From positions 1 through 52,130 of IMG/VR virus record IMGVR_UViG_3300037247_000710: a stretch of 52,130 nucleotides of DNA, one strand, 5' to 3'. Source of the DNA: a virus. Its lineage: Duplodnaviria; Caudoviricetes. The notes under the pieces are model-generated. The model saw only the letters and a list, made by a program, of their open reading frames with translations, was not told the DNA's origin and did no database searches. The translations under genes were made by a program, and so were the position numbers. This document shows, in pieces, positions 37,852-52,130 of this stretch; the stretch's first letter is position 1, and every line of letters starts with the position of its first letter.

Positions 37852-37880
37852 TTTACACGGTATCGCTCCTGTGATACAAT
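37852..37880 (+). promoter_or_regulatory. sigma70-like promoter with operator (37855-37874)
   Basis: TTTACA-N17-TACAAT with TGn extension and AT-rich upstream; ACACGGTATCGCTCCTGTGA. Confidence 0.75.
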
Positions 37881-37922: not shown

Positions 37923-38222
37923 ATGACAAAGAAAGCAAACGTAACTGGACTCGCCGACGAACTCGGCATCATCCGCGCCAAGATGGCGGACCTGAAAGTT
38001 CGCGAGACTGAGATTCGCGAGGTCATGATCGATGCTGGCATCAAAGCATTCGAGGATCGGAAGTTCCGCGCAGTCGTTGTTGAGTCACTGCGTACTTACA
38101 TCGACTGGAAGTCAGTTGCTGCGAAACTGAAACCTTCGCACCAGTTGGTCACGGCGCACACGACCGAGAAGGATGTCATTTCCATCCGAGTCAGCGCCCG
38201 CATCGGAGCACTCCTGTCATGA
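37923..38222 (+). CDS. Hypothetical early protein
   Basis: RBS AAGGAG; first gene after promoter. Confidence 0.75.
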   Translation: MTKKANVTGLADELGIIRAKMADLKVRETEIREVMIDAGIKAFEDRKFRAVVVESLRTYIDWKSVAAKLKPSHQLVTAHTTEKDVISIRVSARIGALLS

Positions 38223-38482
38223 GGATTGCTCTCGCCTTCACAGGCAAGACACGAGATGTGGCTCAGTACCTGCCGAGTAACTTCCGGGTACTGGGTCGCA
38301 GCTTGGACAACTCCAAGACCATTATCATAGGTGTCGATGACCACGGTTGGTCACTCGACGCTTACGTCATTCCCCGTCTTGGATCGGCACTCATCCACTG
38401 CGAAGAGGTCTTCGAGATCAACGGTCTCAACATCACGCAGCTGGAACTCAATCTGAAGCTGGAACAGGAGCACAGCATATGA
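38219..38482 (+). CDS. Hypothetical protein
   Basis: ATGA overlaps on both sides. Confidence 0.7.
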   Translation: MRIALAFTGKTRDVAQYLPSNFRVLGRSLDNSKTIIIGVDDHGWSLDAYVIPRLGSALIHCEEVFEINGLNITQLELNLKLEQEHSI

Positions 38483-38778
38483 AGTACAACTTAGAAAGCG
38501 CCCAAGGGATGGCATCACAACATCCCGACTCGTTCGAGGTGGCATCCATCGATAAGCTGCGCGAAGTCGTGCAACCCGGAGTGTTCGCAAAGATCTGCGT
38601 ACTCGACGATGGAGGTGAGCGCATCTGGACCAAGGTCGTCAAGGTCAATGGTGTCAGGGTCACGGCGACATTCGCCAACACTCCCTTCGATATCGATGCC
38701 GCGCACGGTGACCGAGTCTATTATCAACTGCACAACATCTACAACGTCACGGACGAAGACGGGGAGGAACTCGCATGA
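38479..38778 (+). CDS. Hypothetical protein (ERxW motif, DUF2314-like)
   Basis: Start refined to MKYNLE (RBS AGGAG); AKIC...GERIWTKV..ATFAN.P. Confidence 0.65.
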   Translation: MKYNLESAQGMASQHPDSFEVASIDKLREVVQPGVFAKICVLDDGGERIWTKVVKVNGVRVTATFANTPFDIDAAHGDRVYYQLHNIYNVTDEDGEELA

Positions 38779-39023
38779 GGCTCTCAACAGTCATGTACAT
38801 GAACGGTCGCGTCGTCGGTTACCAATACCAATTGAAGGTGACCATCACGCCTGCCGAAGAAGAGAACCGGGGCACGATGATTGTGTTCGACGCTCACGGT
38901 CTGTTAGTGGACGAGTTCACCCGCAAGTATCACCACGGCTATCACCGGGAGTACATCAAGAAGTCGATGCGCGACTGGGCGAAGCACCGTGACGAGATGC
39001 CTGAGATCAAGGATGCGTCATGA
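38775..39023 (+). CDS. Hypothetical protein
   Basis: RBS GGAGG; ATGA overlaps. Confidence 0.65.
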   Translation: MRLSTVMYMNGRVVGYQYQLKVTITPAEEENRGTMIVFDAHGLLVDEFTRKYHHGYHREYIKKSMRDWAKHRDEMPEIKDAS

Positions 39024-39190
39024 GTAGGAGTGACAATCCGTTCAAGGTAGGTGAGACGGTCAGCATCAAACGTGGTGCTGGCTGGCTCACCGGCACTGTC
39101 ATCAAGACGATACTGGCACGAGTGCACATCCAGATCGACGACATGGTGTACGTCGAAGACTGGCACGAGTGCAAACGAGGAACAGAGTAA
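39020..39190 (+). CDS. 56-aa SH3/KOW-like protein; not in ORF track
   Basis: MSRSDNPFKVGETVSIKRGAGWLTGTVIK...; ATGA and TAATG couplings. Confidence 0.6.
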   Translation: MSRSDNPFKVGETVSIKRGAGWLTGTVIKTILARVHIQIDDMVYVEDWHECKRGTE

Positions 39191-39423
39191 TGCTAACCCA
39201 AGACATGATTGATGAGATGGGCCTCGCGGTGTACGAACAGGCGCAGGAGATATTCAAAGACTGCGGTGCTGCCGACGACTTCTGTCATCAAACCGGATTG
39301 GTATTCGGCAGCACTAACCGAATCAAATTAACGATACGCGGATGGGATGTGGAGGCATCCCACTGCACCGAAAAATTCCTAGATGCATTTGACCGCATCG
39401 CATACACGAGGATGTGTTCGTAA
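39190..39423 (+). CDS. Hypothetical protein
   Basis: Start refined to MLTQDM (TAATG coupling). Confidence 0.6.
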   Translation: MLTQDMIDEMGLAVYEQAQEIFKDCGAADDFCHQTGLVFGSTNRIKLTIRGWDVEASHCTEKFLDAFDRIAYTRMCS

Positions 39424-40445
39424 TGACCAGACAACGCACCAACAAACCCGGCTCGCTGGGTCCTGCATTCCACACATGGTTGGAGTGGTTGGAGCACATC
39501 GAGTACGTCCTGCTTGGCACGGGACCGATGAAGGGCAAGCCCAAGTACATGGCAATGAACGACACACTGTTCCAGCAGGAAAGTGATGAGTCATTCAATG
39601 CGATGATGAAGGAGTGCATGCCGGTCGATGCCTACAACGCACGCGTCGTTCGCTCATCAACGAAGTACAAGATGGACGTCAGTGTGATGATGGACATGAT
39701 CGGCAAGTACCGGGCCGAGCTGGATTACATCCGCAACACGCGCCCCATTAACCTGCCATTCGAATGGTGCACGCTCGTGATCACTGGCTACGGTGATGAC
39801 GACATCCTAGTGTGCCTGACCGAGACCGACCCCCGTGATGGCAACGACTATCCCGAACTGAACATCGGGGCAGGCGACAAGTTCATCGACTGCAACATCG
39901 CATTCTACCGACAGACCGGCATCGAGATGCTGGACGGTAAGATCGACAAGGGTCAGCGGCTGAGCTACTGCCCGGTCGAGCTACACTTTAATAAGGGACT
40001 GCTTGAAGAGGATTCAGTGTTCCTGCATGCAGTCGCCAAGGGTGTCACCGTCACTCCAAAGGGCAAGGCTGTCGTTGATTTGATACGCACCATGGTCCTG
40101 ATCTGGATCAACTCATTCCACTTGGCAGCGATGCTGCGACACAAGCAGGTCGGACTGCCTGCCGCACACGGTCACAGGATCAAGCGCAAGCGACTGCGCA
40201 AGAAAAGGAATCACCCACACTTCGAACACTTCATCGTTGAGATGGAAGTCGATGAACCTGACGCTCAGCAAACAGGGGTGTCGATGTATCAACCACGCAA
40301 GAGGCTGCATCAGGTGCGCGGATTCTTCCGACACTACAAGACAGGCAAGGTGTCATGGGTCCGGGCGCACTGGCGCGGAGACGAGGCTATAGGCGTCGTG
40401 AAGAAGGATTACGAACTAACACTACACGAGGAGCAAAGCACATGA
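39414..40445 (+). CDS. Phage protein with basic C-terminal HxVRGxxR...WVxxHWRG motif
   Basis: 343-aa ORF; RLHQVRGFFRHYKTGKVSWVRAHWRGD. Confidence 0.75.
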   Translation: MFVMTRQRTNKPGSLGPAFHTWLEWLEHIEYVLLGTGPMKGKPKYMAMNDTLFQQESDESFNAMMKECMPVDAYNARVVRSSTKYKMDVSVMMDMIGKYRAELDYIRNTRPINLPFEWCTLVITGYGDDDILVCLTETDPRDGNDYPELNIGAGDKFIDCNIAFYRQTGIEMLDGKIDKGQRLSYCPVELHFNKGLLEEDSVFLHAVAKGVTVTPKGKAVVDLIRTMVLIWINSFHLAAMLRHKQVGLPAAHGHRIKRKRLRKKRNHPHFEHFIVEMEVDEPDAQQTGVSMYQPRKRLHQVRGFFRHYKTGKVSWVRAHWRGDEAIGVVKKDYELTLHEEQST

Positions 40446-40699
40446 GTAAGACACTGAAAGAAGAACGCGACAGCTGGGAAAGCAACGAGAGCAAGACACA
40501 GATTACGCATTTCGAAATAAAACACCGGGAGGCGTACGTCACCATACTGGTCGAAGGAGTCTCAGGTGCGAATGATGATACGACCCTGTACTACGACATG
40601 ATCCGCTACTTCAAGATCGGCGACGACTGGGTCACCAGTTGTGATGTCCGGTCGGGCAGTGCACACGACATCATGCGCAAGTTCGCAGATATTATTTAA
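40442..40699 (+). CDS. Hypothetical protein
   Basis: Start refined to MSKTLK; RBS GAGGAG. Confidence 0.65.
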   Translation: MSKTLKEERDSWESNESKTQITHFEIKHREAYVTILVEGVSGANDDTTLYYDMIRYFKIGDDWVTSCDVRSGSAHDIMRKFADII

Positions 40700-40723
40700 C
40701 GCAAGCAAAAAAGGAGCAAGACA

Positions 40724-40876
40724 ATGGGTAATGAACTGACAATCAGAGTAAACGAAGGCGACGAAGAGTTCGACAACGAAGCAATCGATAAGATCCTGCA
40801 GGTGTTGCAGGATGCCGAAGAAGAAGGCGTGCTTGACTTCGCCTTCAACGTAACCCGCAACCAGTACCCGAGGTGA
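40724..40876 (+). CDS. 50-aa acidic protein; not in ORF track
   Basis: AGGAGCAAGAC-A-ATG leader; MGNELTIRVNEGDEEFDNEAIDKILQVLQDAEEEG... Confidence 0.7.
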   Translation: MGNELTIRVNEGDEEFDNEAIDKILQVLQDAEEEGVLDFAFNVTRNQYPR

Positions 40877-40881
40877 CTGAC

Positions 40882-41070
40882 ATGCCAACTTTACAAGTAC
40901 GAGTTTCGACCGTAGTCGTGAAGGAGTACACGTACGAAGGTATTTCATTCGATGAGGAAGAAGACTACTGCGAAGACGCGAAGGAGCAGATGCAAGCTGA
41001 TCTCCAAAGCGACGATTGGGATACCTCGCACTCGGACGTACGCATACACTGGGAAGGAGAAGAAGGATGA
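40882..41070 (+). CDS. 62-aa highly acidic protein
   Basis: RBS GAGGT; FDEEEDYCEDAKEQMQADLQSDDWD. Confidence 0.65.
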   Translation: MPTLQVRVSTVVVKEYTYEGISFDEEEDYCEDAKEQMQADLQSDDWDTSHSDVRIHWEGEEG

Positions 41071-41285
41071 AGAGACTAACGATGTTAGTGGTGCTGTTCG
41101 CACTAGCTGCATCAGCGGCGACAGAACAGCCGTACACACTCGTGCTCATAACACCGGGCAAACACTTCAAAGCACAACTATGGAAGTACGAGACTCTGAG
41201 AGAGTGTACGAACGACGGTGCCAGAGTCCTGACTGATCAGGATATCTACATCGGTTTCGGTTGCATCATAGAGGAGGATTTGTAA
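41067..41285 (+). CDS. Small exported protein
   Basis: Signal peptide MKRLTMLVVLFALAASA; two Cys. Confidence 0.6.
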   Translation: MKRLTMLVVLFALAASAATEQPYTLVLITPGKHFKAQLWKYETLRECTNDGARVLTDQDIYIGFGCIIEEDL

Positions 41286-41446
41286 TGGCATTCGTACCGT
41301 TCACCAGTCTGATCATCTACATGCTCATAGCACTGGGGTGCGTGCTGATTGCAACACGCTACCTGATGCTGGGGATTGCAGGACTGTTGTTGCTCCTGAT
41401 CCCCATCGAGGTGCTGGTCAGGATAGGTACCATGGTCCTCAGTTGA
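41285..41446 (+). CDS. Small membrane protein
   Basis: 53 aa, almost entirely hydrophobic; RBS GAGGAGG. Confidence 0.55.
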   Translation: MAFVPFTSLIIYMLIALGCVLIATRYLMLGIAGLLLLLIPIEVLVRIGTMVLS

Positions 41447-41471
41447 CACAGGAGCGCAGATGTGCAACAAT
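41443..41471 (+). promoter_or_regulatory. sigma70-like promoter with operator (41446-41465)
   Basis: TTGACA-N17-AACAAT with TGn; ACACAGGAGCGCAGATGTGC. Confidence 0.6.
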
Positions 41472-41476
41472 GAAAA

Positions 41477-41608
41477 TGAGTGGTGGGGTAGCTATCAGAA
41501 CCCTGCCGTTGATCCCGCGAGAGAAGCGGAGCTACTGACCCTTAATGGCGAGGCACCGAAGATTGATGACCGGGGTAGGAACAACAGGAGCGTTGATCCC
41601 ACCACTCA
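41477..41608 (+). ncRNA. Candidate structured RNA / leader
   Basis: 11-bp closing stem TGAGTGGTGGG/CCCACCACTCA starting at the predicted TSS and followed by a T-run; internal stems. Confidence 0.5.
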
Positions 41609-41641
41609 CGTTTTTTAACCGTAAGAAAAGGAGTACTACCA

Positions 41642-42391
41642 ATGTTAATGTTTACAAATGACGACAACGTCGTAACCCGGCAGTCCCTGTCGAACTTCGA
41701 TGACAAAGCACTCGCACTGCATACCCGCTCGCACAAGCCCGTACCTTTCTCGCAAGGCATCGACCTCGTACAGGACGTTGCTGAGAAGCAGGGTTTCCGC
41801 TTCGGCGAAGAGCAGTACGTACTGGCTCGCAACGACACGCAGTTGTTCGGCCTGATCGAGATCGTGAACTTCACCAGTGACGAGAGCAAGTTCTGCCTTG
41901 GTATTCGCAGCGCACTCAACAAGTCGCTGAGCTGGCAGGCTTGCCTTGGTGAGGCGCTTTCGATCTGCACCAACCTTGACCTGTTCGGCAGCGTCGTGTT
42001 GAAGCGCAAGCAGACCACGTTCATCATGAATGATCTGCGCGCCATGCTCAGTAACTTCATGGGCGGAGTCACGCAGTCAATCGAAGACCGGGCTGTACAG
42101 GTTGCACGGTACAAGCAGGCGCAGCTGCAGGATTCGACAGCGAATCACACTATCATCCAGATGCTGCGAACTGGTATCATCAACACGCAACGAGTCGAGA
42201 AAGTTGTTAACGAATATTACGAGCCGACTCATGCAGAGCACCTGAACGAGGATGGCGAACGTACTAACTGGACGCTGTTCAACGCTGCCACCGAAGCGTT
42301 CAAAGGCTCACCGATCAGCACCTATACCGAGCGGTCACAGAAGCTTCACGACCTCATCGGTAAGGCAACGGACTACGCACTGGCAGCATAG
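41642..42391 (+). CDS. DUF932-like phage/plasmid protein
   Basis: H.PVP...LGIRS..NKS...G....ICTNL...WTLFNAATE. Confidence 0.7.
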   Translation: MLMFTNDDNVVTRQSLSNFDDKALALHTRSHKPVPFSQGIDLVQDVAEKQGFRFGEEQYVLARNDTQLFGLIEIVNFTSDESKFCLGIRSALNKSLSWQACLGEALSICTNLDLFGSVVLKRKQTTFIMNDLRAMLSNFMGGVTQSIEDRAVQVARYKQAQLQDSTANHTIIQMLRTGIINTQRVEKVVNEYYEPTHAEHLNEDGERTNWTLFNAATEAFKGSPISTYTERSQKLHDLIGKATDYALAA

Positions 42392-42406
42392 TGTTGTAGT
42401 GCTCCT

Positions 42407-42444
42407 GCCCCCCGGATCTCGCGAGAGTGATGGGGGGTTTTTTT
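42407..42444 (+). terminator. Rho-independent terminator
   Basis: GCCCCCC...GGGGGGT stem followed by T-run. Confidence 0.75.
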
Positions 42445-42526
42445 ATTCCCCGGCTGTGTGATCGAGCAGGGATCCCCCCATTTAACATAATCCTGACTTT
42501 ACATAATGTCCCCAAAATGCCCCGAT

Positions 42527-42555
42527 TTGACACGGGAGCGCTTTTGCTGTAAAGT
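42527..42555 (+). promoter_or_regulatory. sigma70-like promoter with operator half-site (42530-42549)
   Basis: TTGACA-N17-TAAAGT; ACACGGGAGCGCT; two TTxACATAAT boxes upstream. Confidence 0.7.
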
Positions 42556-42605
42556 GGTACTCCTTATATACGAACGGCGAAATCGCCCACAAACAGGAGC
42601 AAGAC

Positions 42606-44090
42606 ATGGTCACACTTTCCCCCTTCCAACAAGCGGTCATCGACTGGGTCACGGCGCACATCACCGTCCCCGGTGCCTTGGTCGTTGAAGCAGTCGCTGG
42701 CAGCGGCAAGACCTTCACCATCGTAAAGGCAGCGCAGCTGATCCCCGCATCGGCGAAGGCTGTCTTCCTCGCCTTCAATAAAAAGATCGCCACCGAGCTG
42801 GGCACCAAGCTGCCCGACCACGTCGAGAGCAAGACGCTCAACGCGCTGGGCTGGGCACTGTGCCGTTACCGTCTCGGCAAGCACATCACCGTCGAACGCA
42901 ACAAGACTCGCGACCTCATCCAGAAGCACCTGCCCGAAGAGGCGCGTGAGGTGATGGCGGAACTCCTGAATATCATCGCTAAGGCAAAGTCGCACGGGCT
43001 CATCCCGCCGCGCATGAAGACTCCCCGTGGCACGTACGAGGCAACCGACGAGAAGTGGCGCAACCTGATGGACCGCTACGACGTTGACCCCAACGGCTGC
43101 GGGGAGCCCACCTTCCTTACATGGGCGAACCTGATCCTCCGCAAGGGGCTCGAAGAGCAGAACGTCTTCGACTTCGATGACCAGCTGTACATGCCGGTCG
43201 CACTGGACCTGCCCGCATGGGGCTACGAGTGGATCATCATCGATGAGGCGCAAGACGTCAGCCACGTACAGCGCACCCTGCTTCGCAAGTTCCTGAAGAG
43301 CAACGGTAAGCTGATCGCAGTCGGCGATTCGCATCAAGCCATCTACGGATTCCGGGGCGCTGACTCCCAGTCGCTCGCCAACATTGGCCGAGTGTTCAAG
43401 GCCGATACGCTGCCGCTCTCGATCAGCTACCGGTGCCCGCGCAAGGTCGTTGAGATCGCACAGCAGTTCGTGCCGCACATCACCTGCAGCGACACTGCCG
43501 AAGACGGCGAGATCCTGAACCCCACTGACTGGGCAGTCGAATCCTTCAGCGACGACGACCTCGTCGTATCGCGCACGACCGCACCGCTGATCGAGCTTGC
43601 ATACAAGTGCATCAGCGAAGGCAAGAAGGTCCACGTCTTAGGCCGGGAGATCGGCAAAGGTCTGATCAACGTCATCAAGAAGGCAGGCGGCAAACGCATC
43701 TCGACAATCGAAGAGCTGCGCCCGAAGCTGGACCGCTGGCAGGATCGCATGGTCCGCAAGGCCGAGAAGGATGAGGCGAAGATCGCAGCGATTCAGGACA
43801 AGGTGGATTGCATCAACATCCTGAGCGCAGGGCTCGACACGATCAAGCAGCTGATCGATGCCATCGAAGCGATCTTCAGCAACGATGCATCGGGAACCAT
43901 ACTGGCAACCATCCACAAGGCCAAAGGTCTTGAGGCACCGCGAGTATTCATCCTGAACCCGGACAGCATGCCCTCACGTTGGGCACGGCAAGAATGGCAG
44001 ATGGAACAGGAGCGCAACCTGCAGTACGTCGCAGTGACCCGAGCGCTTGAGACTCTCGTTTACTTACCACTGGAGGTGGTCGGGGCATAA
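42606..44090 (+). CDS. UvrD/Rep-like SF1 helicase
   Basis: AVAGSGKT, LAFNK, IDEAQD, VGD..QAIYGFRGA, SYRCP, TIHKAKGLE, YVAVTRA. Confidence 0.9.
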   Translation: MVTLSPFQQAVIDWVTAHITVPGALVVEAVAGSGKTFTIVKAAQLIPASAKAVFLAFNKKIATELGTKLPDHVESKTLNALGWALCRYRLGKHITVERNKTRDLIQKHLPEEAREVMAELLNIIAKAKSHGLIPPRMKTPRGTYEATDEKWRNLMDRYDVDPNGCGEPTFLTWANLILRKGLEEQNVFDFDDQLYMPVALDLPAWGYEWIIIDEAQDVSHVQRTLLRKFLKSNGKLIAVGDSHQAIYGFRGADSQSLANIGRVFKADTLPLSISYRCPRKVVEIAQQFVPHITCSDTAEDGEILNPTDWAVESFSDDDLVVSRTTAPLIELAYKCISEGKKVHVLGREIGKGLINVIKKAGGKRISTIEELRPKLDRWQDRMVRKAEKDEAKIAAIQDKVDCINILSAGLDTIKQLIDAIEAIFSNDASGTILATIHKAKGLEAPRVFILNPDSMPSRWARQEWQMEQERNLQYVAVTRALETLVYLPLEVVGA

Positions 44091-44119
44091 GCCTCGACTC
44101 CCCGCAAAGGAGCACGACA

Positions 44120-44287
44120 ATGCCCGAACTGAAAGTAACGCACGTCAGCACGCGACCGCTCACTGATCGCGAGATCAAGGATCTGCAGTACCAGCAGGAT
44201 CACTGCTACAGCTGCGACACACCGTACGAAGGCAAGTATCAGATCTGCCCTCGTCCGACATGCAACAGTCACCAAGAGATTGGATAG
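44120..44287 (+). CDS. 55-aa zinc-ribbon protein; not in ORF track
   Basis: AGGAGCACGAC leader; CYSC...CPRPTC. Confidence 0.7.
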   Translation: MPELKVTHVSTRPLTDREIKDLQYQQDHCYSCDTPYEGKYQICPRPTCNSHQEIG

Positions 44288-44297
44288 GAGCACGACA

Positions 44298-44489
44298 ATG
44301 CCAAAAGCAAAAGTAATCAAGACAGTGAAATGCATCCCGACGTGGAAGGCTGCAGCCAGCATCTACATCACGGCGATAGTTAACGGTACCCCTGAGGGTC
44401 AACAGGCCGGGATCGCAGGTGTCCACGAGATGGCGGAGCACCTTGACCGCATCAACGAGGAAAACAAGAGTGACACTGACGAAGGCTGA
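44298..44489 (+). CDS. Hypothetical protein (63 aa)
   Basis: AGGAGCACGAC leader; start MPKAKV. Confidence 0.7.
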   Translation: MPKAKVIKTVKCIPTWKAAASIYITAIVNGTPEGQQAGIAGVHEMAEHLDRINEENKSDTDEG

Positions 44490-44521
44490 ATGCCCGAAAG
44501 CGCCGAGGGGCGCTATGTCAC
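44470..44521 (+). ncRNA. Type I hammerhead ribozyme
   Basis: GTGACA-CTGACGA-AGGC tgaat GCCC-GAAA-GCGCC gagg GGCGC-TA-TGTCAC: complete core, stems I-III; predicted cut after A44515. Confidence 0.8.
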
Positions 44522-44540
44522 AAAAGCAAAGGAGCACGAC

Positions 44541-44996
44541 ATGTTAAAAGTTTATCACTATGCAGGACTGACCGACGACGAGCGCAAGCAAGTCAACGGC
44601 AACAACGGTGGCTGGGATTGTAGCCCGCGCATTCGGCGCTATGCCGCAATCACGATGTCCGCCAAACCTGAAGCAGTAATCGATGGACTGATCGAGCGCG
44701 AGTATCACCTCGTCGCAGTTGTCGATTCTGGTGACCTCGAAGATGGTTTCCGGTACACCAATCACATCGATATGGACTGGACTTTGAATAGTCTGGTTAC
44801 CCCGGTCCCCGGTGCAAGCAAGCGCAGCACCTCAGTCGGCGACATCATCGTACGTGACGGTGCTACTTACATCGTCGCAGGTAGCGGGTTCACACTGCTG
44901 GGCGAGATCCCGAAGCCACGACCGCTGGGGCGTATCGAGTATCTGAAAATTGTTCCCGGCTACGACGGCGAACCTGACATCGAGGTGCAAACATGA
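44541..44996 (+). CDS. YodL-like protein
   Basis: AGGAGCACGAC leader; Y.LVA.V...LE..F..TN...RSTSVGDII...Y.V...GF. Confidence 0.7.
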   Translation: MLKVYHYAGLTDDERKQVNGNNGGWDCSPRIRRYAAITMSAKPEAVIDGLIEREYHLVAVVDSGDLEDGFRYTNHIDMDWTLNSLVTPVPGASKRSTSVGDIIVRDGATYIVAGSGFTLLGEIPKPRPLGRIEYLKIVPGYDGEPDIEVQT

Positions 44997-45259
44997 ATGA
45001 GGAAATCCAAGTCGAAGTGTTGACCGCTGACTATCAGCGAAACGGCGTCGGTGGTGAGGGATTTTACGCGGCAACGATACGCTGCGACAACGAATCCCTG
45101 CTGGCGACGATAGCCTACAAGAATGACGGCGAGACGTTCGATGACTGCAGCTGCAGAGTAGTTGACCCGCTGGACCTGACCTGCCACTACCGTGGTGACC
45201 GCATCGGAGCGGCACTAATTCCGAAACTTACGAAGTATCTAGAGGAGCACAACAAATGA
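44993..45259 (+). CDS. Hypothetical protein
   Basis: RBS GAGGT; ATGA coupling. Confidence 0.7.
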   Translation: MNEEIQVEVLTADYQRNGVGGEGFYAATIRCDNESLLATIAYKNDGETFDDCSCRVVDPLDLTCHYRGDRIGAALIPKLTKYLEEHNK

Positions 45260-45696
45260 AACGCTACAGCGTAAAGTTAGTCCGCAGGCTGGATCAGTCT
45301 GCAGTCGTGTCGGTTGACGCCGATAACGCGAGTGATGCCGCGCACAAGGGCATCGAAATGACCCCGCTATTCTGGCGAACGGACGTAACCGAATCGACGT
45401 ACTACGAGTCGGTCAAAGAGATCGTCGAACCGACGCCCGAGCCCGAGTCGAAAGAGAAAAACATCACGACTAAGATCTACACTTACGACGTGGAACTGGA
45501 CGTGAGTTACGACGGTGGTGACCTCGTGTCATCGTGTTTTGTCAGCAAGCAAAGAGGGCGCACAAAGTACTGCAGCTCGCTGGCATTGCTGGATGATCAA
45601 GGTACGATTGAAGGCGACAACTGGGGCGACGTGATCCAAGTGCCGGATAAAGTAGTTAAGAAAATCTACGCATGGGCGGAGGAAAACGGCTACTGA
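45256..45696 (+). CDS. Hypothetical protein
   Basis: AGGAGCACAAC leader; last gene before terminator. Confidence 0.7.
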   Translation: MKRYSVKLVRRLDQSAVVSVDADNASDAAHKGIEMTPLFWRTDVTESTYYESVKEIVEPTPEPESKEKNITTKIYTYDVELDVSYDGGDLVSSCFVSKQRGRTKYCSSLALLDDQGTIEGDNWGDVIQVPDKVVKKIYAWAEENGY

Positions 45697-45724
45697 TAAA
45701 TCCGCGCAGACTTTGGGCAATTGG

Positions 45725-45754
45725 AGACGCGTGCAAGTTGGCGCGTCTTTTTTT
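45725..45754 (+). terminator. Rho-independent terminator
   Basis: AGACGCGT-loop-GCGCGTCT followed by T-run. Confidence 0.75.
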
Positions 45755-45809
45755 GTGCATGCTACATGTACACGGCAGCACGAAATCCGCGCATCGGTGC
45801 ACGGGAGCG

Positions 45810-46035
45810 GCACGATTGCAGCACGATTGCAGATGGATTGCAGAATAAGTATTTGAAAACATTCGCGATTGCAGGATTGCAGGATTGTTGTATTAAAAGA
45901 GGGTAGGAGGGGAGGAGGGAAAGAGAGTACACGCGTGAAACTACTACTACTCTATAACAATCCTACAATCTACAATCCATCCACTTAACTAACTGATACT
46001 TATACTCGCATTGCGATTGCAGGAATTGCAATTCA
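45810..46035. repeat. GATTGCA / TACAATC repeat cluster, candidate replication origin or genome-end region
   Basis: GATTGCA at 45814, 45825, 45836, 45867, 45875, 46015; inverted ACAATC copies within 45957-45977; purine tract and CTA repeats between. Confidence 0.6.
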
Positions 46036-46222
46036 AAAACAACCCGCATAGGTAAGCCGTTCCCGCGTGTTGCGTAGCCGTGGAATGCACGCGTGCAAAA
46101 CAGATCACGAGAGCTGCCGCGATGCATCGGCGCTGTCAATACTTGTGCAGCGGTATATGCATATCCACCGCACCGCTACCGTGGAATGCCTAGCACAGTC
46201 GCGGACGTCAGTCAAGCTGGTG

Positions 46223-46458
46223 TTAACATAATGCACCCCGGACTGGGCACCATCCGACTTCACATAATCTGGGATTTAGTTCTTGACACGGTAGCGCTAA
46301 CGTGCTAAAATCCATGGGCGGGTCTGGGGCCGTATCCGTTTTTCCTCCTATTTGACATAATACCTGCCCTGCTGGGCTGGAGCCCGCACGGGCATTGGCT
46401 ACTTAACATAATGCCTATTTGACATAATACGCAAATGAATTCGGAGATTTGACATAAT
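46223..46458 (+). repeat. Cluster of six TTRACATAAT-type boxes
   Basis: Copies at 46223, 46259, 46352, 46403, 46419, 46449. Confidence 0.85.
46283..46311 (+). promoter_or_regulatory. sigma70-like promoter with operator (46286-46305)
   Basis: TTGACA-N17-TAAAAT with TGn; ACACGGTAGCGCTAACGTGC. Confidence 0.75.
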
Positions 46459-46461
46459 GAC

Positions 46462-46490
46462 TTGACAAGCGCTCCCGTGTATGATATGCT
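46462..46490 (+). promoter_or_regulatory. sigma70-like promoter with operator half-site
   Basis: TTGACA-N17-TATGCT with TGn; AGCGCTCCCGTGT in spacer. Confidence 0.75.
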
Positions 46491-46536
46491 GGACTCCTTA
46501 TATACGACGAAAACGAAAATCCAAAAGGAGCACGAC

Positions 46537-46794
46537 ATGATTAGAACGATAACTTTAAAGACCGGCGGCAAATGCGCGAAGTGCGGACACGAGTTACATG
46601 CAGGCGGACGGGCTCGCTGGACACCTCACAAAATCTTTTGTCTTTCCAATGCGCATCACGGACACGCGACCGCTGGCGAGTACCGGGCGCGAATCAATAT
46701 CGCCACCGGCACCGTCCACTTCGAATTCGCCATGGGGAAAATTACCGACGACGAACGCGACGCCAGACTGGCTGATTTGCTAGGAGGAAAATAA
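46537..46794 (+). CDS. Small zinc-binding protein
   Basis: AGGAGCACGAC leader; GKCAKCG..L..G....W....FC. Confidence 0.7.
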   Translation: MIRTITLKTGGKCAKCGHELHAGGRARWTPHKIFCLSNAHHGHATAGEYRARINIATGTVHFEFAMGKITDDERDARLADLLGGK

Positions 46795-47552
46795 TGAGAG
46801 TATCAAGCTTGATTCTTTATCAGGGTCCGTCCGAACTGGACGGTGCCCCGATTGTTGTCATCGCGACCGGCATCGCGAACCGTTCGAAGAATTCCAAAAC
46901 GGGCGGCATGATTCAGACCCACATCATAAGGGCGGACATGCTGCCAATGCAGGCGATTTGGTCTGGCGCGGATGCGAGCATATGCGGGGACTGTATCCAC
47001 CGGGGAGACGGTACCGGCAAAGGGCGGACATGCTACGTTAAAGTTTTTCAGGGAACGACGGTAGTCTATAAAACGTTCGCACGCGGCGGCTATCCGGTCG
47101 CGACGGAATCGGACTGGCAACTGTTTAAAGACCGGGGCGTTCGGTTCGGCACCTACGGTGATCCAGCTGCCGCGCCAATAGAGTTATGGCAGCGCCTGCA
47201 GGATCTCGCGAGCTTCACGACGGGCTATACACATCAATGGAAACGGATCTCGCCAGACTGGGCGAAACTCTGCATGGCGAGCGCGGACACGGAGGCCGAT
47301 GCAATCAATGCCCAGCGCGTAGGGTACCGGACATTTCGCGTAACTCTTGACGGTGCGGATCCGCTGAAAAATGAAGTGCTATGTCCTGCCAGCGAAGAGG
47401 CCGGTCGCAAGCTTCAATGCGAACAGTGCAAAGCATGCAACGGTGCGAACGGACGTCGCGGTTCAATCTACATTCCAATGCACGGACCCAATAGTGCCGC
47501 CAAGGGTCAATCGGAATTGTTATCACGTATCACAGTCACGGTAGTAAACTAA
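46794..47552 (+). CDS. Cys-rich putative Fe-S protein (phage gp88-like / radical-SAM-related)
   Basis: NSKTG, ICGDC...CYV, VRFGTYGDP, GYTHQW, CPA...CEQCKAC. Confidence 0.65.
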   Translation: MRVSSLILYQGPSELDGAPIVVIATGIANRSKNSKTGGMIQTHIIRADMLPMQAIWSGADASICGDCIHRGDGTGKGRTCYVKVFQGTTVVYKTFARGGYPVATESDWQLFKDRGVRFGTYGDPAAAPIELWQRLQDLASFTTGYTHQWKRISPDWAKLCMASADTEADAINAQRVGYRTFRVTLDGADPLKNEVLCPASEEAGRKLQCEQCKACNGANGRRGSIYIPMHGPNSAAKGQSELLSRITVTVVN

Positions 47553-47564
47553 AGGAGCACGACA

Positions 47565-47765
47565 ATGCAACAACCCATGATAGTTAGAGCAGTGGCAAAG
47601 AAAAATACACAAGCCATGATTCGCGCTTTGCGCAGTGCAAAGCTTACAGTCACAAAAGATTCGAACGGGTTCTACCTCTGCAAGTTAGACGGTAAAACTT
47701 TGTTCGCGGCGATGCCCGGTCGGTTGAACTATTTGGTTCGCATGCAACCCGATCTGTTCTCGTAA
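47565..47765 (+). CDS. Hypothetical protein
   Basis: AGGAGCACGAC leader; followed by terminator. Confidence 0.7.
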   Translation: MQQPMIVRAVAKKNTQAMIRALRSAKLTVTKDSNGFYLCKLDGKTLFAAMPGRLNYLVRMQPDLFS

Positions 47766-47781
47766 TCGCGTAACACGGAAG

Positions 47782-47815
47782 CGCTCGCGTGTCAAGCACG
47801 CGGGCGTTTTTTTTT
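47782..47815 (+). terminator. Rho-independent terminator overlapping an operator copy (47773-47792)
   Basis: CGCTCGCGTG-loop-CACGCGGGCG plus T9. Confidence 0.8.
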
Positions 47816-47828
47816 GTGCGCGCCCGAC

Positions 47829-47941
47829 TTAACATAATCTGGAGCGGGGGCTGCAGTCACAGACCGTGCCATGTTACATAACGTGGGCAGGCGCGACTTG
47901 ACATAAGGTGGCACCCCGCACCAGATCCGACTTAACATAAC
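47829..47941 (+). repeat. Cluster of four TTRACATAA-type boxes
   Basis: Copies at 47829, 47873, 47898, 47932, three preceded by CGAC. Confidence 0.8.
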
Positions 47942-48039
47942 GCAAAATTCGCCTCCCACATGAATATTTTTTCCAAGATCTCTAGGATCCCTATCGCACG
48001 GCAGCGTTGACGTGCACTCTCGTGTGCTACACTGCGCCG

Positions 48040-48258
48040 ATGACTATTAGAGTGAAGAAATCAGACCCACCGGAGTCTACCGAGATACTGGCTGACTCCA
48101 TTGTCCGCATCAGCGAGTCGCTCGACAAACTGAGCGAGTCCGGGCTGAATCACAAGGCAATCGTTATCCTGATTCAGGCTGCAACCAAGTTGTCCCGCCG
48201 GGACATTGAAGCTGTGCTCGATGCGCAGAAGCGATTGGCTGGGTGGTATTGCAAATGA
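48040..48258 (+). CDS. Small helical protein, probably leaderless
   Basis: MTIRVKKSDPP...LIQAATKLSRRDIEAVLDA; no SD; ATG 7 nt after TACACT. Confidence 0.6.
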   Translation: MTIRVKKSDPPESTEILADSIVRISESLDKLSESGLNHKAIVILIQAATKLSRRDIEAVLDAQKRLAGWYCK

Positions 48259-48470
48259 GTATCCAGTTCGATCTGTTCGTGCCGCCTGATTTGTATCGCG
48301 ACAAAGTGATCAGCGAAGAGCCCTACGTGAAGGTTTTGGGGGACATCGGTTGGTCCCACGACTATCAGTGTCTCACCGCGCTGGCGCAAGTAGAGTCGTG
48401 CCTGTGCATCGTTTCTTTCAAGATGAGTGAGAGCCCCTCTCCCGCACGCAAACTAGCCTACCCTGCCTGA
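48255..48470 (+). CDS. Hypothetical protein
   Basis: ATGA coupling; start MSIQFD. Confidence 0.55.
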   Translation: MSIQFDLFVPPDLYRDKVISEEPYVKVLGDIGWSHDYQCLTALAQVESCLCIVSFKMSESPSPARKLAYPA

Positions 48471-48543
48471 CCCCTCACCGGGGTTAAGCCATTTTCGGCC
48501 TTTTCCCAAATATTATTATGTTAAAAACCCAGTGTTTCCGTGC

Positions 48544-48572
48544 TGTACACGTCAGCGGAGCAGTGGTACGAT
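48544..48572 (+). promoter_or_regulatory. sigma70-like promoter with degenerate operator
   Basis: TGTACA-N17-TACGAT with TGn; ACACGTCAGCGG. Confidence 0.55.
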
Positions 48573-48580
48573 TGTCGCGA

Positions 48581-48752
48581 GTTTGCCGTCTCGCTTGCAT
48601 CATCCCGAGACACGGCGAGCTGATTGCGGGGTGGAACCCCCGGTAACGGTTTAGGTGTTTGGGCTTTGAGGCCCGCAAAGGTTAAACCTCAACATGCACC
48701 CTGCCGTCGCCTTAGTCCGACACGGAGTTCGGCGTAAAACCGGGGGCTCCAT
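48581..48752 (+). ncRNA. Candidate structured RNA / long leader
   Basis: Hairpin 48581-48620; long-range stem 48631-48644/48739-48752; duplicated TGCCGTC...GACACGG hairpin motif. Confidence 0.5.
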
Positions 48753-48784
48753 TTAGCACCTTACAACAACAACAAGGAGCTTTC

Positions 48785-49366
48785 ATGTTCTCAGTCCAAC
48801 AGAAGCGCGAGATTTCCGATGCAGTGCAGAAGATCCTGCGTTCAACCATGCATCCCGAACTGCCTCCGACCGGGGAAGTTTCTTTCTCACTGAACGTCGC
48901 TGGGGCCGAATCTTGGTCGTATGCGACTATCGTAAACAACGGTGCAGTCGGTGATCCCGGCGTTAACCCGCACAACGAATTAATGGCATCTATGCCAGAG
49001 GAGAAAGCGCGGGAACTGATCGAGGAGGCGCAGCAACCCTATGCACCCGATGATCGCGTCCACCCGGACGAGATGATGCAGGAGATGCTGAAGCAGCAAA
49101 TTTCAAAGCTGACCCAGCGTGTATATAAGGCGGAAGCGATCATCATCGATTACAACAAGCGTCTTACGCGATTGCAGGATCGGGATGAAATCCACCGCAA
49201 ACTGTATTCTGAGCTGAGATTCGGGCTCGATAAGTTGCAGGAGTACCTCCTACCGATCATGGAAGATAATTTGATCGCGCATCACGATGACCAGATTCGC
49301 AACATGATGACTGCGATGAAACAGTTGGGTAATCCGCAAGTTCAAAAATCTCTTGAAGGTAAATAA
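48785..49366 (+). CDS. Phage protein with C-terminal coiled coil
   Basis: RBS AAGGAG; MFSVQQKREISDAVQKILR..HPELP domain plus heptads. Confidence 0.75.
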   Translation: MFSVQQKREISDAVQKILRSTMHPELPPTGEVSFSLNVAGAESWSYATIVNNGAVGDPGVNPHNELMASMPEEKARELIEEAQQPYAPDDRVHPDEMMQEMLKQQISKLTQRVYKAEAIIIDYNKRLTRLQDRDEIHRKLYSELRFGLDKLQEYLLPIMEDNLIAHHDDQIRNMMTAMKQLGNPQVQKSLEGK

Positions 49367-49609
49367 ATGGCGATCATATATGGAGGCGCAAAAGGCACCT
49401 GTGTCATACCTGATTGCGAAGAAGATGTCCGGTACATTCATCTCGAAGTGTGTGCGGCTTGCTATTCAGGACTTGCCCGCTGGCGTGGACGCTCTGTTGT
49501 CGAAAAGCGTCATCGCATGGGTATTAATCGGCGACTGGTTTCACGGATGGATTTCATCATGGCAAACCCACGACACCACCCGAAAAGAACGCCCAGAGCG
49601 CGACGCTGA
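49367..49609 (+). CDS. Small basic Cys-containing protein
   Basis: CVIPDC...CAACY; R-rich tail. Confidence 0.6.
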   Translation: MAIIYGGAKGTCVIPDCEEDVRYIHLEVCAACYSGLARWRGRSVVEKRHRMGINRRLVSRMDFIMANPRHHPKRTPRARR

Positions 49610-49767
49610 TGGCTGAAGGGTGCCCCGGAGCTGATGGACTTGTGTGTGTTGACGGGTATCTGTATTCCCAGTTCAAGACCCGGATGATGATCTTTCCGGC
49701 CAATAAAAAGTGTCCGGTTTGTAATCCGCCAAAGGAAGACGATGAGAACTGTAATCACGACGCATGA
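49609..49767 (+). CDS. 52-aa Cys-rich protein; not in ORF track
   Basis: TGATG coupling; MAEGCPGADGLVCVDG...KCPVCNPP. Confidence 0.5.
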   Translation: MAEGCPGADGLVCVDGYLYSQFKTRMMIFPANKKCPVCNPPKEDDENCNHDA

Positions 49768-49963
49768 TCTACACCAGCTCGCGACTATGTGTCACGACCG
49801 GGCAGAGGAATATCGTGCGCCCTATGTCGAGACTGACGAGGAAAATCGGTTCGTCGGGAGTACCAGCTACCCGATCTACGCGATGCTGCAGGAAATGTGG
49901 CTACTGCTGAACAAATTTGCGGACAATCTGGACGAAGCAACGACAAAAGGGGAAGAAGGATGA
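49742..49963 (+). CDS. Hypothetical protein
   Basis: Co-oriented, RBS AAGGA. Confidence 0.6.
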   Translation: MRTVITTHDLHQLATMCHDRAEEYRAPYVETDEENRFVGSTSYPIYAMLQEMWLLLNKFADNLDEATTKGEEG

Positions 49964-50313
49964 GTAACGGTGGATTGCAACAAGGTCCCGGAGGACCACT
50001 GGCAACACAACAAATGGCACAAGCAGCAACGGAATCAGCAAGGGAAGTAAGTCTCAACGCAGTGCGCGATGACGTGAATAACATGTCGGATGGTCTTTCG
50101 ACGCTCGACGATACGGTACAACGCTTGCAGATGCATTTGATGGGTGAGCAGCCTTCGCTCAAAGGCGAGGAAGATGTCCAACGTGCAGAGAGACCGACGC
50201 CTAGCGGGACACTTCCGATGCTCTGCAATATGGGTTCGACTAACATCCGGCACCTGCAACGGATTCAGGAGCGACTGAACCAACTCTGCTACGAGTTGGG
50301 TGAAGGTAGGTGA
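49960..50313 (+). CDS. Coiled-coil hypothetical protein
   Basis: Start refined to MSNGG (ATGA coupling). Confidence 0.6.
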   Translation: MSNGGLQQGPGGPLATQQMAQAATESAREVSLNAVRDDVNNMSDGLSTLDDTVQRLQMHLMGEQPSLKGEEDVQRAERPTPSGTLPMLCNMGSTNIRHLQRIQERLNQLCYELGEGR

Positions 50314-50693
50314 AAAAAAACTACGTCACCTTCTACAGTCCCGGCACCATGGTCGCAGAGACGACCAGACGGGAAGTAGCGTCGTGGAATGTCGATAAGG
50401 CGCTAAAAATGTCAGAAGATATCAAGGAGCGCCACGGTGCCCGACCGTACGGATTTTGCTTCACTACCATGAAGCGCGGTCTGCGCGAGTTTACGCCGAG
50501 AGAGGTTGATCGCAGCGGCATGTACTACATCAACTGCATGGTGCTGACATTAGTTGAGATGGAAGCGAGGAGTGATCCTAAGGAATCGATACTGCTGCAG
50601 AATATGCGGAGTAACGGCTGGGATAAGATCGTCACTACAAAGAGCGGGTGGGCATGGTCACAACCGTTGGAAGACACGGACATAGTGCTGTGA
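50310..50693 (+). CDS. Hypothetical phage protein
   Basis: GTGA coupling; VTFYSPGT..AE...ERHGARPYGF.F. Confidence 0.7.
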   Translation: MKKNYVTFYSPGTMVAETTRREVASWNVDKALKMSEDIKERHGARPYGFCFTTMKRGLREFTPREVDRSGMYYINCMVLTLVEMEARSDPKESILLQNMRSNGWDKIVTTKSGWAWSQPLEDTDIVL

Positions 50694-50869
50694 TATTAGT
50701 TAAAGTTTTGTACGGCAATAAAGATGGGCACGTCATCGATGCGCGTGTCTCGCAGGCGACGTTCGACAAGATCGAAGAATATAACCTGACTCATCCTTCG
50801 CCGCTCAGCGAAGAAGATGTTGCCTACATCAAAAAATTAATCGCAGAAGACCCGGATGCTATTACCTAA
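50690..50869 (+). CDS. Hypothetical protein
   Basis: GTGA coupling, fills the gap. Confidence 0.5.
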   Translation: MILVKVLYGNKDGHVIDARVSQATFDKIEEYNLTHPSPLSEEDVAYIKKLIAEDPDAIT

Positions 50870-51167
50870 AACATGTCCCGGTTGCGCTCGTAAACTCCAG
50901 CGAAAAGCGGCTCAATATGCTTGGCACGGAGTCGTGATGCACGGTTGGGTTTGCCCATCCTGCAACTCCCTGTGGGACATCGGTGGTGCGTTCATACGTT
51001 ACGTCACAAAGGTAGCGAAAAAAGAAAACAAGAAACGTGATCCTGATACCGACCCGGACTGGACAGGCAGCTGCGAGAATTGCGGCGAAAGTCCCATCGT
51101 CCCTGCAACAGGGATGTGCGGTCCTTGTACGTTCGGAGAAGCAGACACTATAGGAGGTAACTGGTGA
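50856..51167 (+). CDS. Double zinc-ribbon protein
   Basis: CPGC...CPSC and CENC...CGPC. Confidence 0.65.
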   Translation: MLLPKTCPGCARKLQRKAAQYAWHGVVMHGWVCPSCNSLWDIGGAFIRYVTKVAKKENKKRDPDTDPDWTGSCENCGESPIVPATGMCGPCTFGEADTIGGNW

Positions 51168-51379
51168 TTACATTACCCGGCGGCGAGAAAGCCCATGCCG
51201 ATTCGACAGGCAGACAGATTTCGATTGGCGACAAGATCCGATTTCGTGGGACGAACTACACGCTCAAGGACTTTGGACCTAACGAGGAACACTACGGAGT
51301 AGCGACGTTAATTTTCGAGGAAGAAGTGCATACCGACGAGGTACCGCACGAATGCAACGTGGATAAGGTGATGACATGA
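51164..51379 (+). CDS. Small SH3-like hypothetical protein
   Basis: RBS AGGAGG; DSTGRQISIGDKIRF. Confidence 0.65.
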   Translation: MITLPGGEKAHADSTGRQISIGDKIRFRGTNYTLKDFGPNEEHYGVATLIFEEEVHTDEVPHECNVDKVMT

Positions 51380-51741
51380 GTTTTAAATTGACAATCGAAA
51401 TACCCGACAGCAAATTAATAGCGACACTTCGAACGCTGACTGCTCACAAAGTGACTGTCGAATCAACGGAGAAGTACAAGCCCGGTTGGGATGATCCGCG
51501 AAAGAAGAACGGTGATGCCCGACCGCATGGACGTGCTGATTCCCGGTTAACAATGACCGGAAAAACGGCGCAGCCCCAGTCGAAGATTGCGGTAGCTATG
51601 ACCCTGTTCGAGAAGCTCGAAGCCCGCAACGGGATCGGTCAGGTCACAGTGCAGGCTTTTCGCGAACATCTTGTGAAGAATGACCAGCCCAAGGGGCTAG
51701 CTCAGCGAGTCGTTACTGAAAAATTCATGACTTACCTGTAA
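51376..51741 (+). CDS. Hypothetical basic protein
   Basis: ATGA coupling. Confidence 0.65.
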   Translation: MSFKLTIEIPDSKLIATLRTLTAHKVTVESTEKYKPGWDDPRKKNGDARPHGRADSRLTMTGKTAQPQSKIAVAMTLFEKLEARNGIGQVTVQAFREHLVKNDQPKGLAQRVVTEKFMTYL

Positions 51742-51773
51742 ACTCCGCACATCCCAGCTGCGGGGGGGAGTTT

Positions 51774-52040
51774 ATGAAGTTCACCGTTGAAATCCCCGAC
51801 GACATTCTCCAGTGGGCGAATGCCGAAGGGGTCAACCGACAAATGATTGCCAAGTTCATGCGCGAGGAGCTACGCATGGTCTCGTCTCGTCACGGGCACT
51901 CACCCACGCTCAATCGAGCGCAGGTCCCCGGCGAGAGTCATGAATGGAGAGGCTTTATTTTCAATGAAGTACGGGTGCGTGTGACCACCAAAGTCATCGA
52001 TAGGATATTCAAAGTAGACACGGCAGCACATGGGCGGTAA
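51774..52040 (+). CDS. Hypothetical protein, ribbon-helix-helix-like N-terminus
   Basis: MKFTVEIPDDILQWA..EG.NR...K..REEL. Confidence 0.6.
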   Translation: MKFTVEIPDDILQWANAEGVNRQMIAKFMREELRMVSSRHGHSPTLNRAQVPGESHEWRGFIFNEVRVRVTTKVIDRIFKVDTAAHGR

Positions 52041-52130
52041 ATTGCATTAGAGCCTGCCTGTACTTCATTGAACTCCGGGGTAGGAGCCGGAGGGAATCCA
52101 AGGGAGAATCCAGAGGCTCACTTCTGTCAC

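Follow-up and report, generated by a model that had tools for sequence, protein, structure and literature searches.

A conserved anti-Shine-Dalgarno box beside one class of phage terminators and its probable silencing of a start site on the same RNA

In the hok mRNA, fold-back inhibition (fbi/tac) keeps the message inert through the pairing of the 3' end of the full-length molecule with the 5' translation region, and in the coat-replicase pair of MS2 a long-range pairing sequesters the next RBS until ribosomes on the upstream gene open it. Enterobacterial 3'-UTR-derived sRNAs share the terminator of their parent mRNA, the C-rich seeds of RsaE/RoxS target several SD regions, and the boxA of phage lambda follows the consensus YGCUCUUUA. 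In the icaR mRNA of S. aureus, a UCCCCUG motif of the 3' UTR pairs with the SD of the same transcript and blocks initiation (PMC3868564). Anti-SD-like (aSD-like) words lying several hundred nt downstream also pair with the RBS in vivo, inhibit initiation and promote decay, and genes are depleted of them (Gill et al., bioRxiv 2025, PMC12697547). In Cluster K mycobacteriophages the SAS, a 13-bp asymmetric word (GGGATAGGAGCCC) containing AGGAG, stands 3-7 bp ahead of start codons, exclusively those of non-structural genes, with a function left open, and several Cluster K genomes carry a single copy in the opposite orientation (PMC3203893).

Here we describe a conserved 6-nt word, YGCUCC, beside an intrinsic terminator of a phage record of 52,130 bp with an estimated completeness of 82% (the window, by which the whole stretch of DNA analysed is meant) and in related phages. 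Like the icaR motif, it is an anti-SD word, short and rich in pyrimidines, that lies in the 3' UTR of an mRNA whose own SD it complements (11 contiguous bp, 42396-42406 with 41629-41639). Unlike icaR, the phage 3' UTR is only ~55 nt long and has the box fused to terminator and stop codon, the box recurs, in dozens of related phages, wherever a terminator of one class stands, and its partner may be the next cistron instead of its own gene. As in hok, the 3' end of the phage mRNA is predicted to pair with the 5' translation region, but the phage system has neither toxin nor antisense partner and the helix would cover the SD itself. The layout also recalls the 3'-UTR-derived sRNAs, with a C/U-rich word beside an intrinsic terminator whose U tail is shared with the parent mRNA (-20.5 kcal/mol, 7 U); unlike them, the phage box is also kept where no terminator follows. 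As in MS2 coupling, an upstream word would sequester the RBS of the next cistron; the masking word lies, however, just past the stop codon, and a terminator hairpin, accompanied in the lineage of the window by a promoter, stands before the target. The boxA consensus is not reproduced, YGCUCC being followed by G, U, C or A and lacking UUUA. With lambda nut the element shares a word beginning with YGCUC and then a hairpin, downstream of the first gene of an early unit, but the phage hairpin is the terminator, the element occurs at each member of the class and the word ends in CC; the nut layout, promoter-proximal with a boxB that is not a terminator (PMC10250234), differs from what is found here, a box after the gene and on a terminator hairpin.

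The leader word of the early genes, AGGAGCACGACAAT, to which the box is complementary, resembles SAS in its placement before starts and its restriction to non-structural genes; it works alike but is not a member, its sequence being different. Unlike SAS, it belongs to a different phage group and its inverted word is conserved at a defined position, a terminator-linked inverted copy not being described for SAS in the available part of PMC3203893. The box also differs from an L5-type stoperator, an asymmetric repressor site of ~13 bp that lies in intergenic space and is conserved over its length, in that conservation extends over only 6 nt, with <=0.36 bit in the flanks. As with the words that genes are reported to avoid (PMC12697547), CTCC is depleted in the phage early region; unlike such a constraint, conservation of the phage word is positive and tied to a fixed position, implying use and not avoidance.

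The box and its surroundings in the window

The features of the locus are as follows.

41443..41471, plus strand: sigma-70-like promoter of the DUF932-like unit (TTGACA, 17 nt, AACAAT; 10/12 matches)
41474..41625, plus strand: structured leader RNA of ~150 nt, between this promoter and the DUF932-like RBS, with a closing helix and then a T run
41629..41639, plus strand: own RBS of the DUF932-like gene, AGGAGTACTAC, candidate cis partner of the box
41642..42391, plus strand: DUF932-like gene, 249 aa, C-terminus DYALAA, stop TAG
42393..42406, plus strand: 14-nt 'seed' GTTGTAGTGCTCCT, one base after the DUF932-like stop and directly 5' of the hairpin
42400..42405, plus strand: core anti-SD box YGCUCC (TGCTCC), complementary to GGAGCR
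42407..42444, plus strand: intrinsic terminator of the C-run/G-run class, hairpin GCCCCCCGGATCTCGCGAGAGTGATGGGGGGT at 42407-42438, 7 U
42482..42507, plus strand: two TTAACATAAT-type boxes between the terminator and the next promoter, in a conserved intergenic cassette
42527..42555, plus strand: sigma-70-like promoter of the helicase unit (TTGACA, 17 nt, TAAAGT), operator-like GGGAGCGCT in the spacer
42557..42564, plus strand: second anti-SD-like word, GTACTCCT, at the predicted 5' end of the helicase leader
42594..42608, plus strand: helicase start region, CAGGAGCA at 42594-42601 and ACA at 42604-42606
42606-44090, plus strand: next gene, UvrD-type helicase, with its own promoter
44108-44121, 44286-44299 and 47553-47566, plus strand: early-gene leader AGGAGCACGACAAT, the three exact copies in the window

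The stretch 42389-42444 consists of TAG, TGTTGTAGTGCTCCT, GCCCCCCGGATCTCGCGAGAGTGATGGGGGG and TTTTTTT. The hairpin at 42407-42438 has a predicted stability of about -20.0 to -20.5 kcal/mol, with an inner 3-bp stem, a GCGA tetraloop and an internal loop GGAU/UGAU; it lies 15 nt from the DUF932-like stop, itself 9 nt upstream of the box, and the 18 nt on its 5' side, box included, are predicted to be unpaired in an isolated 56-nt 3' fragment. An earlier reading made from the sequence only had noticed that the 14-mer GTTGTAGTGCTCCT follows the DUF932-like stop and adjoins a strong terminator, which is indeed the case at 42393-42406, and that it pairs at 13/14 positions (one G-U) with the leaders of 44120, 44298 and 47565, at 8+3 with those of 44541 and 46537, and, through 42396-42406, at 11/11 (one G-U) with the gene's own RBS at 41629-41639; all these pairings were verified by hand. 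The observation of an anti-RBS element in front of a terminator is correct.

Besides its exact copies, the leader word has near copies with 1-2 mismatches at 40712, 44530, 45243 and 46526, and all seven plus-strand copies stand before a start codon. A scan of both strands at <=2 mismatches gives 8 matches against 0.29 expected, the sole minus-strand copy in the window being 42393-42406. A single antisense copy in 52 kb, with ~0.15 expected per strand, is not significant alone; it is its conservation in relatives that lifts it above chance. On the sense strand of 36-52 kb, GGAGC is enriched (35 vs 20.4 expected, z=3.0) and CTCC depleted (32 vs 44.7 expected, z=-2.1), and start regions of the GGAGC type number 11/37 in 36-52 kb vs 1/24 in 1-27 kb, as counted with crude gene calls. 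GGAGC serves the early-region genes as SD core, and the conserved word of the box complements it exactly.

The same letters could be the relic of the RBS of a minus-strand gene, a possibility that the sequence-only reading had itself named as fatal to its proposal. The minus strand does read AGGAGCACTACAAC with an ATG 12 nt later, but this ATG, at 42389, opens a frame of only 11 codons, which runs opposite to the conserved C-terminal codons of the DUF932-like gene and lacks its ATG in relatives whose stop is TAA; the box is found behind unrelated genes too, and invariably on the strand that is transcribed. These facts effectively refute the relic, whose probability we put next to nil.

The assignment of the upstream gene is itself approximate, the match of its protein to Pfam DUF932 (E=5.5e-4) lying below the curated cut-off. 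Promoters homologous to that at 41443..41471, whose spacer contains GGAGCGC, are present in relatives. The leader RNA that follows is on the same transcript as the box and carries another GGAGCG word; it has 43 predicted pairs, 6 of them with compensatory changes among 8 relatives. Its interior is highly conserved, the compensatory pairs fall in the closing helix, and the whole resembles an attenuator or a small-RNA gene. A scan of 38000-52130 against Rfam at E<=1 returned one chance match to a plant-virus element and left box, terminator and leader unmatched. The ALAA at the end of the DUF932-like protein (42374-42391) is invariant in 8 homologues, down to 43% identity. We take the terminal DYALAA to resemble the ssrA degradation tag, and this end, with its invariant ALAA, suggests that the protein is deliberately short-lived.

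In a phage database, blastn in distant mode retrieved 2 phages (4 records), each matching over 4-5% and inside the helicase gene; since the matches are confined to that gene, no annotated close relative emerges from this search. A profile scan of genome contigs with the DUF932-like alignment did not find a prophage relative.

Other conserved elements surround the box. The TTAACATAAT boxes give 14 matches at <=1 mismatch vs 1.56 expected (42482-42507, 46223-46458, 47829-47941, 37804 and 48515), are grouped immediately 5' of early promoters and have been conserved among relatives. A palindrome, CACGGnAGCGCTnCCGTG, recurs in the spacers of early promoters (5 matches vs 0.35 expected; 46287-46304, 47774-47791, 37856-37873 and 47997-48014, with degenerate spacer copies at 41447 and 42531) and is likely to serve a shared regulator as operator; the 5' arm of the terminator at 47780 is overlapped by a full copy. 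The leader at about 46491-46507 begins, like that of the helicase, with an anti-SD-like word (GGACTCCTTATATACGA), and these start-of-leader words, GTACTCCT and GGACTCCTTATATACGA, could mask their own SD 35-45 nt downstream.

Conservation of the box and its link to one terminator class

Searches with the DUF932-like protein yielded 9 viral and 50 metagenomic loci (59) at 40-96% identity. GCTCC stands a few nt past the DUF932-like stop and just 5' of a hairpin in 41/47 distinct downstream sequences, the exceptions being L009, L031, L036, L058, L063 and L048, the last with a truncated gene. When the window and the related loci were scanned for hairpins with a C-run/G-run pattern followed by T, 40 plus-strand contexts with 34 distinct hairpin strings were obtained, and GCTCC lies <=16 nt 5' of the stem in all 40 of these distinct plus-strand terminators, against a rate of 1.25% in random windows of the same loci and 0/2 for minus-strand matches to the pattern. 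At least 13 of the 40 box-bearing contexts follow genes other than DUF932. An independent scan for a hairpin plus a T run found 37 plus-strand cases with the box and 24 without it, and 1/23 with it on the minus strand. The box is absent from a second, compact GC-palindromic class that includes the terminators 45724 and 47780 of the window (the names of both classes were coined in the present analysis) and so is no general rule of the transcripts of these phages. A search of viral contigs for the hairpin pattern without the box gave six contigs, all known already. The element is therefore not special to the DUF932-like gene and accompanies every C-run/G-run terminator in the clade.

The profile anchored on GCTCC is sharp: the preceding base is Y in 40/41 contexts, the following one is G in 29/41, and each of the 13 bases further 5' of YGCUCC carries <=0.36 bit (41 contexts). 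The conserved unit is thus YGCUCC and not the 14-nt seed, whose clade-wide conservation is limited to 42400-42405. Its 5' part, GTTGTAG, is lineage-specific; GUAG before YGCUCC is kept in the lineage of the window and in two others, and at the three distal bases even the closest relatives differ from one another. In the same way, a core match of 6-9 nt to the GGAGCR leaders is kept everywhere, which is not the case for the 13/14 extension. The distance from box to stem is constant and short (0-5 nt), and the stop codon is found 1-11 nt from the box in all cases. Behind the box stand hairpins of at least five unrelated sequences, with GNRA or UUCG loops. In L065/L067 and L008 the box is kept although the hairpin has no U run, and this persistence argues against a dependence on 3'-end formation.

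The box-linked hairpin (42407-42438 and its homologues in L001-L066) keeps an internal loop NGAU/UGAN (tandem G.A); beneath its GNRA or UUCG tetraloop, the inner stem shows covariation (CUC/GAG, CCA/UGG, GGC/GCC). This is more structure than a plain terminator needs. In L006 (6750-6812) an extra ORF of 17 codons (MGAIIKAIIKLIKNSNG) is inserted between the DUF932-like stop and the box, and the box retains its 9-nt spacing to the new stop codon. Members of the second class are found at 45724-45754 and 47780-47815 in the window and at L004:8892, L037:6305, L040:3767 and L042:4270, and in several relatives a word similar to GTACGCAC precedes them.

Such a distribution also bears on a different reading, in which YGCUCC and its hairpin would be the nut-like or RAT-like site of a protein or termination factor, for instance a host boxA of the NusB/S10 type or the target of a phage-encoded RNA-binding factor modulating termination, and the complementarity to the SD would be incidental. 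The strict tie to one hairpin class (40/40) and absence from the other, the constant 0-5 nt to the stem and the conserved internal loop over covarying inner stems, unneeded by a plain terminator, fit this reading, and so does YGCUC, which equals the first five bases of the lambda/rrn boxA. The order, boxA and then a hairpin, is that of lambda, but nut sites are promoter-proximal and not placed at each terminator, and boxB is no terminator (PMC10250234). Moreover, the hairpins behind the box differ widely in sequence and have GNRA as well as UUCG loops, which makes hairpin-specific recognition by a protein unlikely; the conserved word complements the SD core of the clade exactly, and the covariation of its flanks with start regions, presented below, is not predicted by this model. 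We consider a protein site unlikely, though a serious alternative.

It might also be supposed that the box has no function and is a passenger, either the 5' edge of a recombining terminator cassette or a decayed half of an operator. The intergenic cassette (terminator, TTAACATAAT, operator-bearing promoter) is indeed conserved and mosaic, the same box region being found with different downstream genes; box regions of the L003 type (CACGGAAGTGCTCCGG) resemble the operator CACGGnAGCGCTnCCGTG, which in full form overlaps the terminator 47780, and in L001 the promoter spacer GTAGCGCTCCTG agrees with the box GTAGTGCTCCTG at 11/12 positions. However, GCTCC is invariant where its neighbours diverge, the 5' flank carrying <=0.36 bit and the stems and loops of the hairpin being replaced outright; the AG of the operator AGCGCT has no conserved counterpart in the box, whose own CC aligns with an operator position that is offset or not conserved, and aSD-like words are elsewhere depleted from these transcripts. 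A passenger is, in our opinion, improbable.

Start regions complementary to the box

The list of partners given by the sequence-only reading was incomplete, missing the 8+3 bp offered by the helicase start region (42594-42606): UGCUCCUG (42400-42407) is perfectly complementary to CAGGAGCA (42594-42601), and a further 3 bp, ACA (42604-42606) with UGU (42395-42397), reach the AUG of the helicase gene. Outside the lineage of the window, the box matches the start region of the next cistron better than that of its own gene. Pairing of the flanks beyond the core exceeds that of permuted partners both for the next gene (2.54 nt vs 1.72, sd 0.19; p=5e-5, 35 distinct pairs) and for the own start region (2.83 vs 2.09; p=1e-4, 24 loci), with p-values that count related loci as independent (pseudo-replication). 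The own-start signal is driven by the lineage of the window, in which the box, extended to GUAGUGCUCCU, makes 11 bp with AGGAGUACUAC, other lineages making 5-7 bp. When the loci are grouped into about 12 box lineages, no more than roughly half of these have a base after CUCC that pairs with the next start region, and the signal counted by lineage is modest. In six genomes with two boxes, the summed helix length is 83 bp with the native next gene vs 73 bp with the swapped partner, the native one being better in 7 of 12 comparisons, tied in 4 and worse in 1. A CGCUCC box is followed by a GGAGCG start region of the next gene in 5/11 cases (L057, L060, L062, L065, L068), GGAGCG being uncommon and the own start region of these five being GGAGCA. 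In L007/L052-54 the box is present and the next ORF is without SD.

As to the covariation of seed and RBS motif proposed earlier as a check, flanks track adjacent start regions, and an excess of C/U at the base before GGAG is confined to these, but genome-wide covariation between the base before GGAG and the base after CUCC is not seen, A dominating with both box types. Because a MAFFT alignment of 31 intergenic regions places the box out of register between lineages, anchored counts and permutations were used for the pairing statistics. Pairing of the box with a conserved GCAGGAA word downstream of the U run was rejected, since this word is constant while the box varies between CUCCUG and CUCCGG. 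In L065:798-870, and also in L067, the box UUCGCUCC pairs 8/8 with the next SD GGAGCGAA or, alternatively, with a near-duplicate GGAUCGAA at the base of the hairpin, a layout similar to that of a two-state switch.

The sequence-only reading had gone further and proposed an antisense master switch, in which the 3' end of the DUF932-like mRNA, or a processed fragment of it, would pair in trans through GUAGUGCUCCU with about a dozen early leaders and shut or time their translation. Its suggested RNA-RNA interaction check returned the expected early start regions as best partners, although shuffled seeds reach many of them too: RNAduplex gives -20.3 kcal/mol for 44298, -19.9 for 47565, -19.8 for 44120, -18.6 for the own start 41642 and -17.8 for the next one, 42606, and 27 candidate starts are at or below -15 kcal/mol, with a mean of 11.8 and a maximum of 33 for shuffled seeds. 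Early start regions, located at 37.9-47.6 kb, supply the top of this ranking (-17.5 to -20.3 kcal/mol); the leader motif recurs (8 vs 0.29 expected) and is restricted to the early region, the box, predicted to be free of pairing in the isolated 56-nt fragment, adjoins a stable hairpin followed by 7 U, and the conserved core of 6-7 nt has the length of a seed. On the other side, the 13/14 match is lineage-specific, its distal three bases varying in the closest relatives while the leaders are constant; in 150-nt 3' fragments the box is not unusually open, with an accessibility of 0.37 vs an average of 0.43 (37 contexts); it is conserved in L065/L067 and L008, where no 3' end is expected; flank matches follow the adjacent cistron and not a genome-wide consensus; and shuffled seeds of the same G/U-rich composition also match many start regions. 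What stands of this proposal is that the box is a genuine conserved complement of the extended early-gene RBS. As the seed is not a conserved unit, the box is not gene-specific, the better match outside the lineage of the window is with the next cistron and accessibility is no higher than average, the trans switch itself is possible but not favoured, and we hold it to be doubtful. Its fullest form, in which 3' ends with the box would accumulate, pair in trans with the SAS-like GGAGCAMGAC leaders of about a dozen early mRNAs under the control of ribosomes at the stop codon, turn off early translation en bloc and so drive a genome-wide early-to-middle switch, the RNA equivalent of a translational repressor of the phage, seems a shade more doubtful still.

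Folding predictions were also examined for the partners in cis. In one run on the full-length, monocistronic mRNA of the window (~970 nt), the box pairs with the own RBS in 10.86/11 expected pairs (p>0.93), and the pairing with the own SD drops to 0.33 when the ends of the RNA shift by ~2 nt. The fold-back on the own RBS suggested earlier is therefore thermodynamically plausible in the lineage of the window, but fragile. Among full-length mRNAs with a usable 5' end, pairing with the own SD exceeds 0.5 in 11/19 and is little in 8/19. In read-through RNAs, taken from the stop to the next AUG, the box core is predicted to pair with the next SD in 26/35, and that of the window pairs with the helicase SD in 5.0/5 expected core pairs; these fragments were cut with box and start region at opposite ends, which favours pairing in the predictions. 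With a scrambled box, the mean probability that the SD is paired falls only from 0.89 to 0.71. The compact relatives (L061, L062, L065 and L068) form <=0.56 of 5 expected core pairs in the predictions, and their box lies partly inside the outer stem of the hairpin. Long-range fold predictions of this kind are unstable.

A proposed cis-acting anti-RBS and its meaning for the phages

The reading that we prefer, tentatively and at slightly less than an even chance, is that of a cis-acting anti-RBS at the 3' end of the transcript, which would mask its own or the next start site under the control of ribosomes stopping upstream. It builds on position, conservation, complementarity, association with a terminator class, flank pairing better than permuted and thermodynamic feasibility, which are established. 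The functional unit would be the 6-nt anti-SD box YGCUCC (42400-42405) in the 5' flank of one terminator class, extended to GUAGUGCUCCU in the lineage of the window, and its pairing in cis with the GGAGC core of an early-gene start region would block binding of the 30S subunit. Two partners may be envisaged in the window. The first is the own RBS (41629-41639, 11 bp), reached by a 3'-to-5' fold-back of the ~970-nt mRNA; the second is the helicase start region (42594-42606, 8+3 bp), available only in transcripts that read through the terminator, and such RNA may be rare, as the terminator of the window looks strong and the next gene has its own promoter.

In an E. coli system, a terminator placed a few nt after a stop codon is repressed by ribosomes standing at that codon, and termination efficiency is maximal once the terminator is >27 nt from the stop (PMC4824070). 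The spacing of 15 nt between stop and hairpin in the window falls where ribosomes hinder terminators, so that upstream translation may raise read-through and at the same time cover the box. A ribosome terminating at the DUF932-like stop would, in this cis-acting scheme, cover the box and partly hinder the hairpin; active upstream translation would keep the box off its target, and a lapse in translation would let the box shut the start site off. Helix formation in vivo, repression of translation by the helices and their gating by ribosomes are what we infer; in its simplest form, the box word probably silences a start site on the same RNA.

If the box were instead a protein site, it would mark a regulated class of terminators in this group of uncultivated marine-sediment phages. 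If the cis-acting reading is true, these phages hard-wire an anti-RBS into their terminators, one module of ~50 nt both stopping transcription and silencing a start site. With the own RBS as target, the outcome would be a self-limiting burst of expression; with that of the next cistron, a translational back-up to a leaky terminator in read-through RNA. The recently described constraint of long-range aSD-RBS pairing would then become a conserved regulatory device, and an RNA partner would be offered for a start-associated leader motif of phages.
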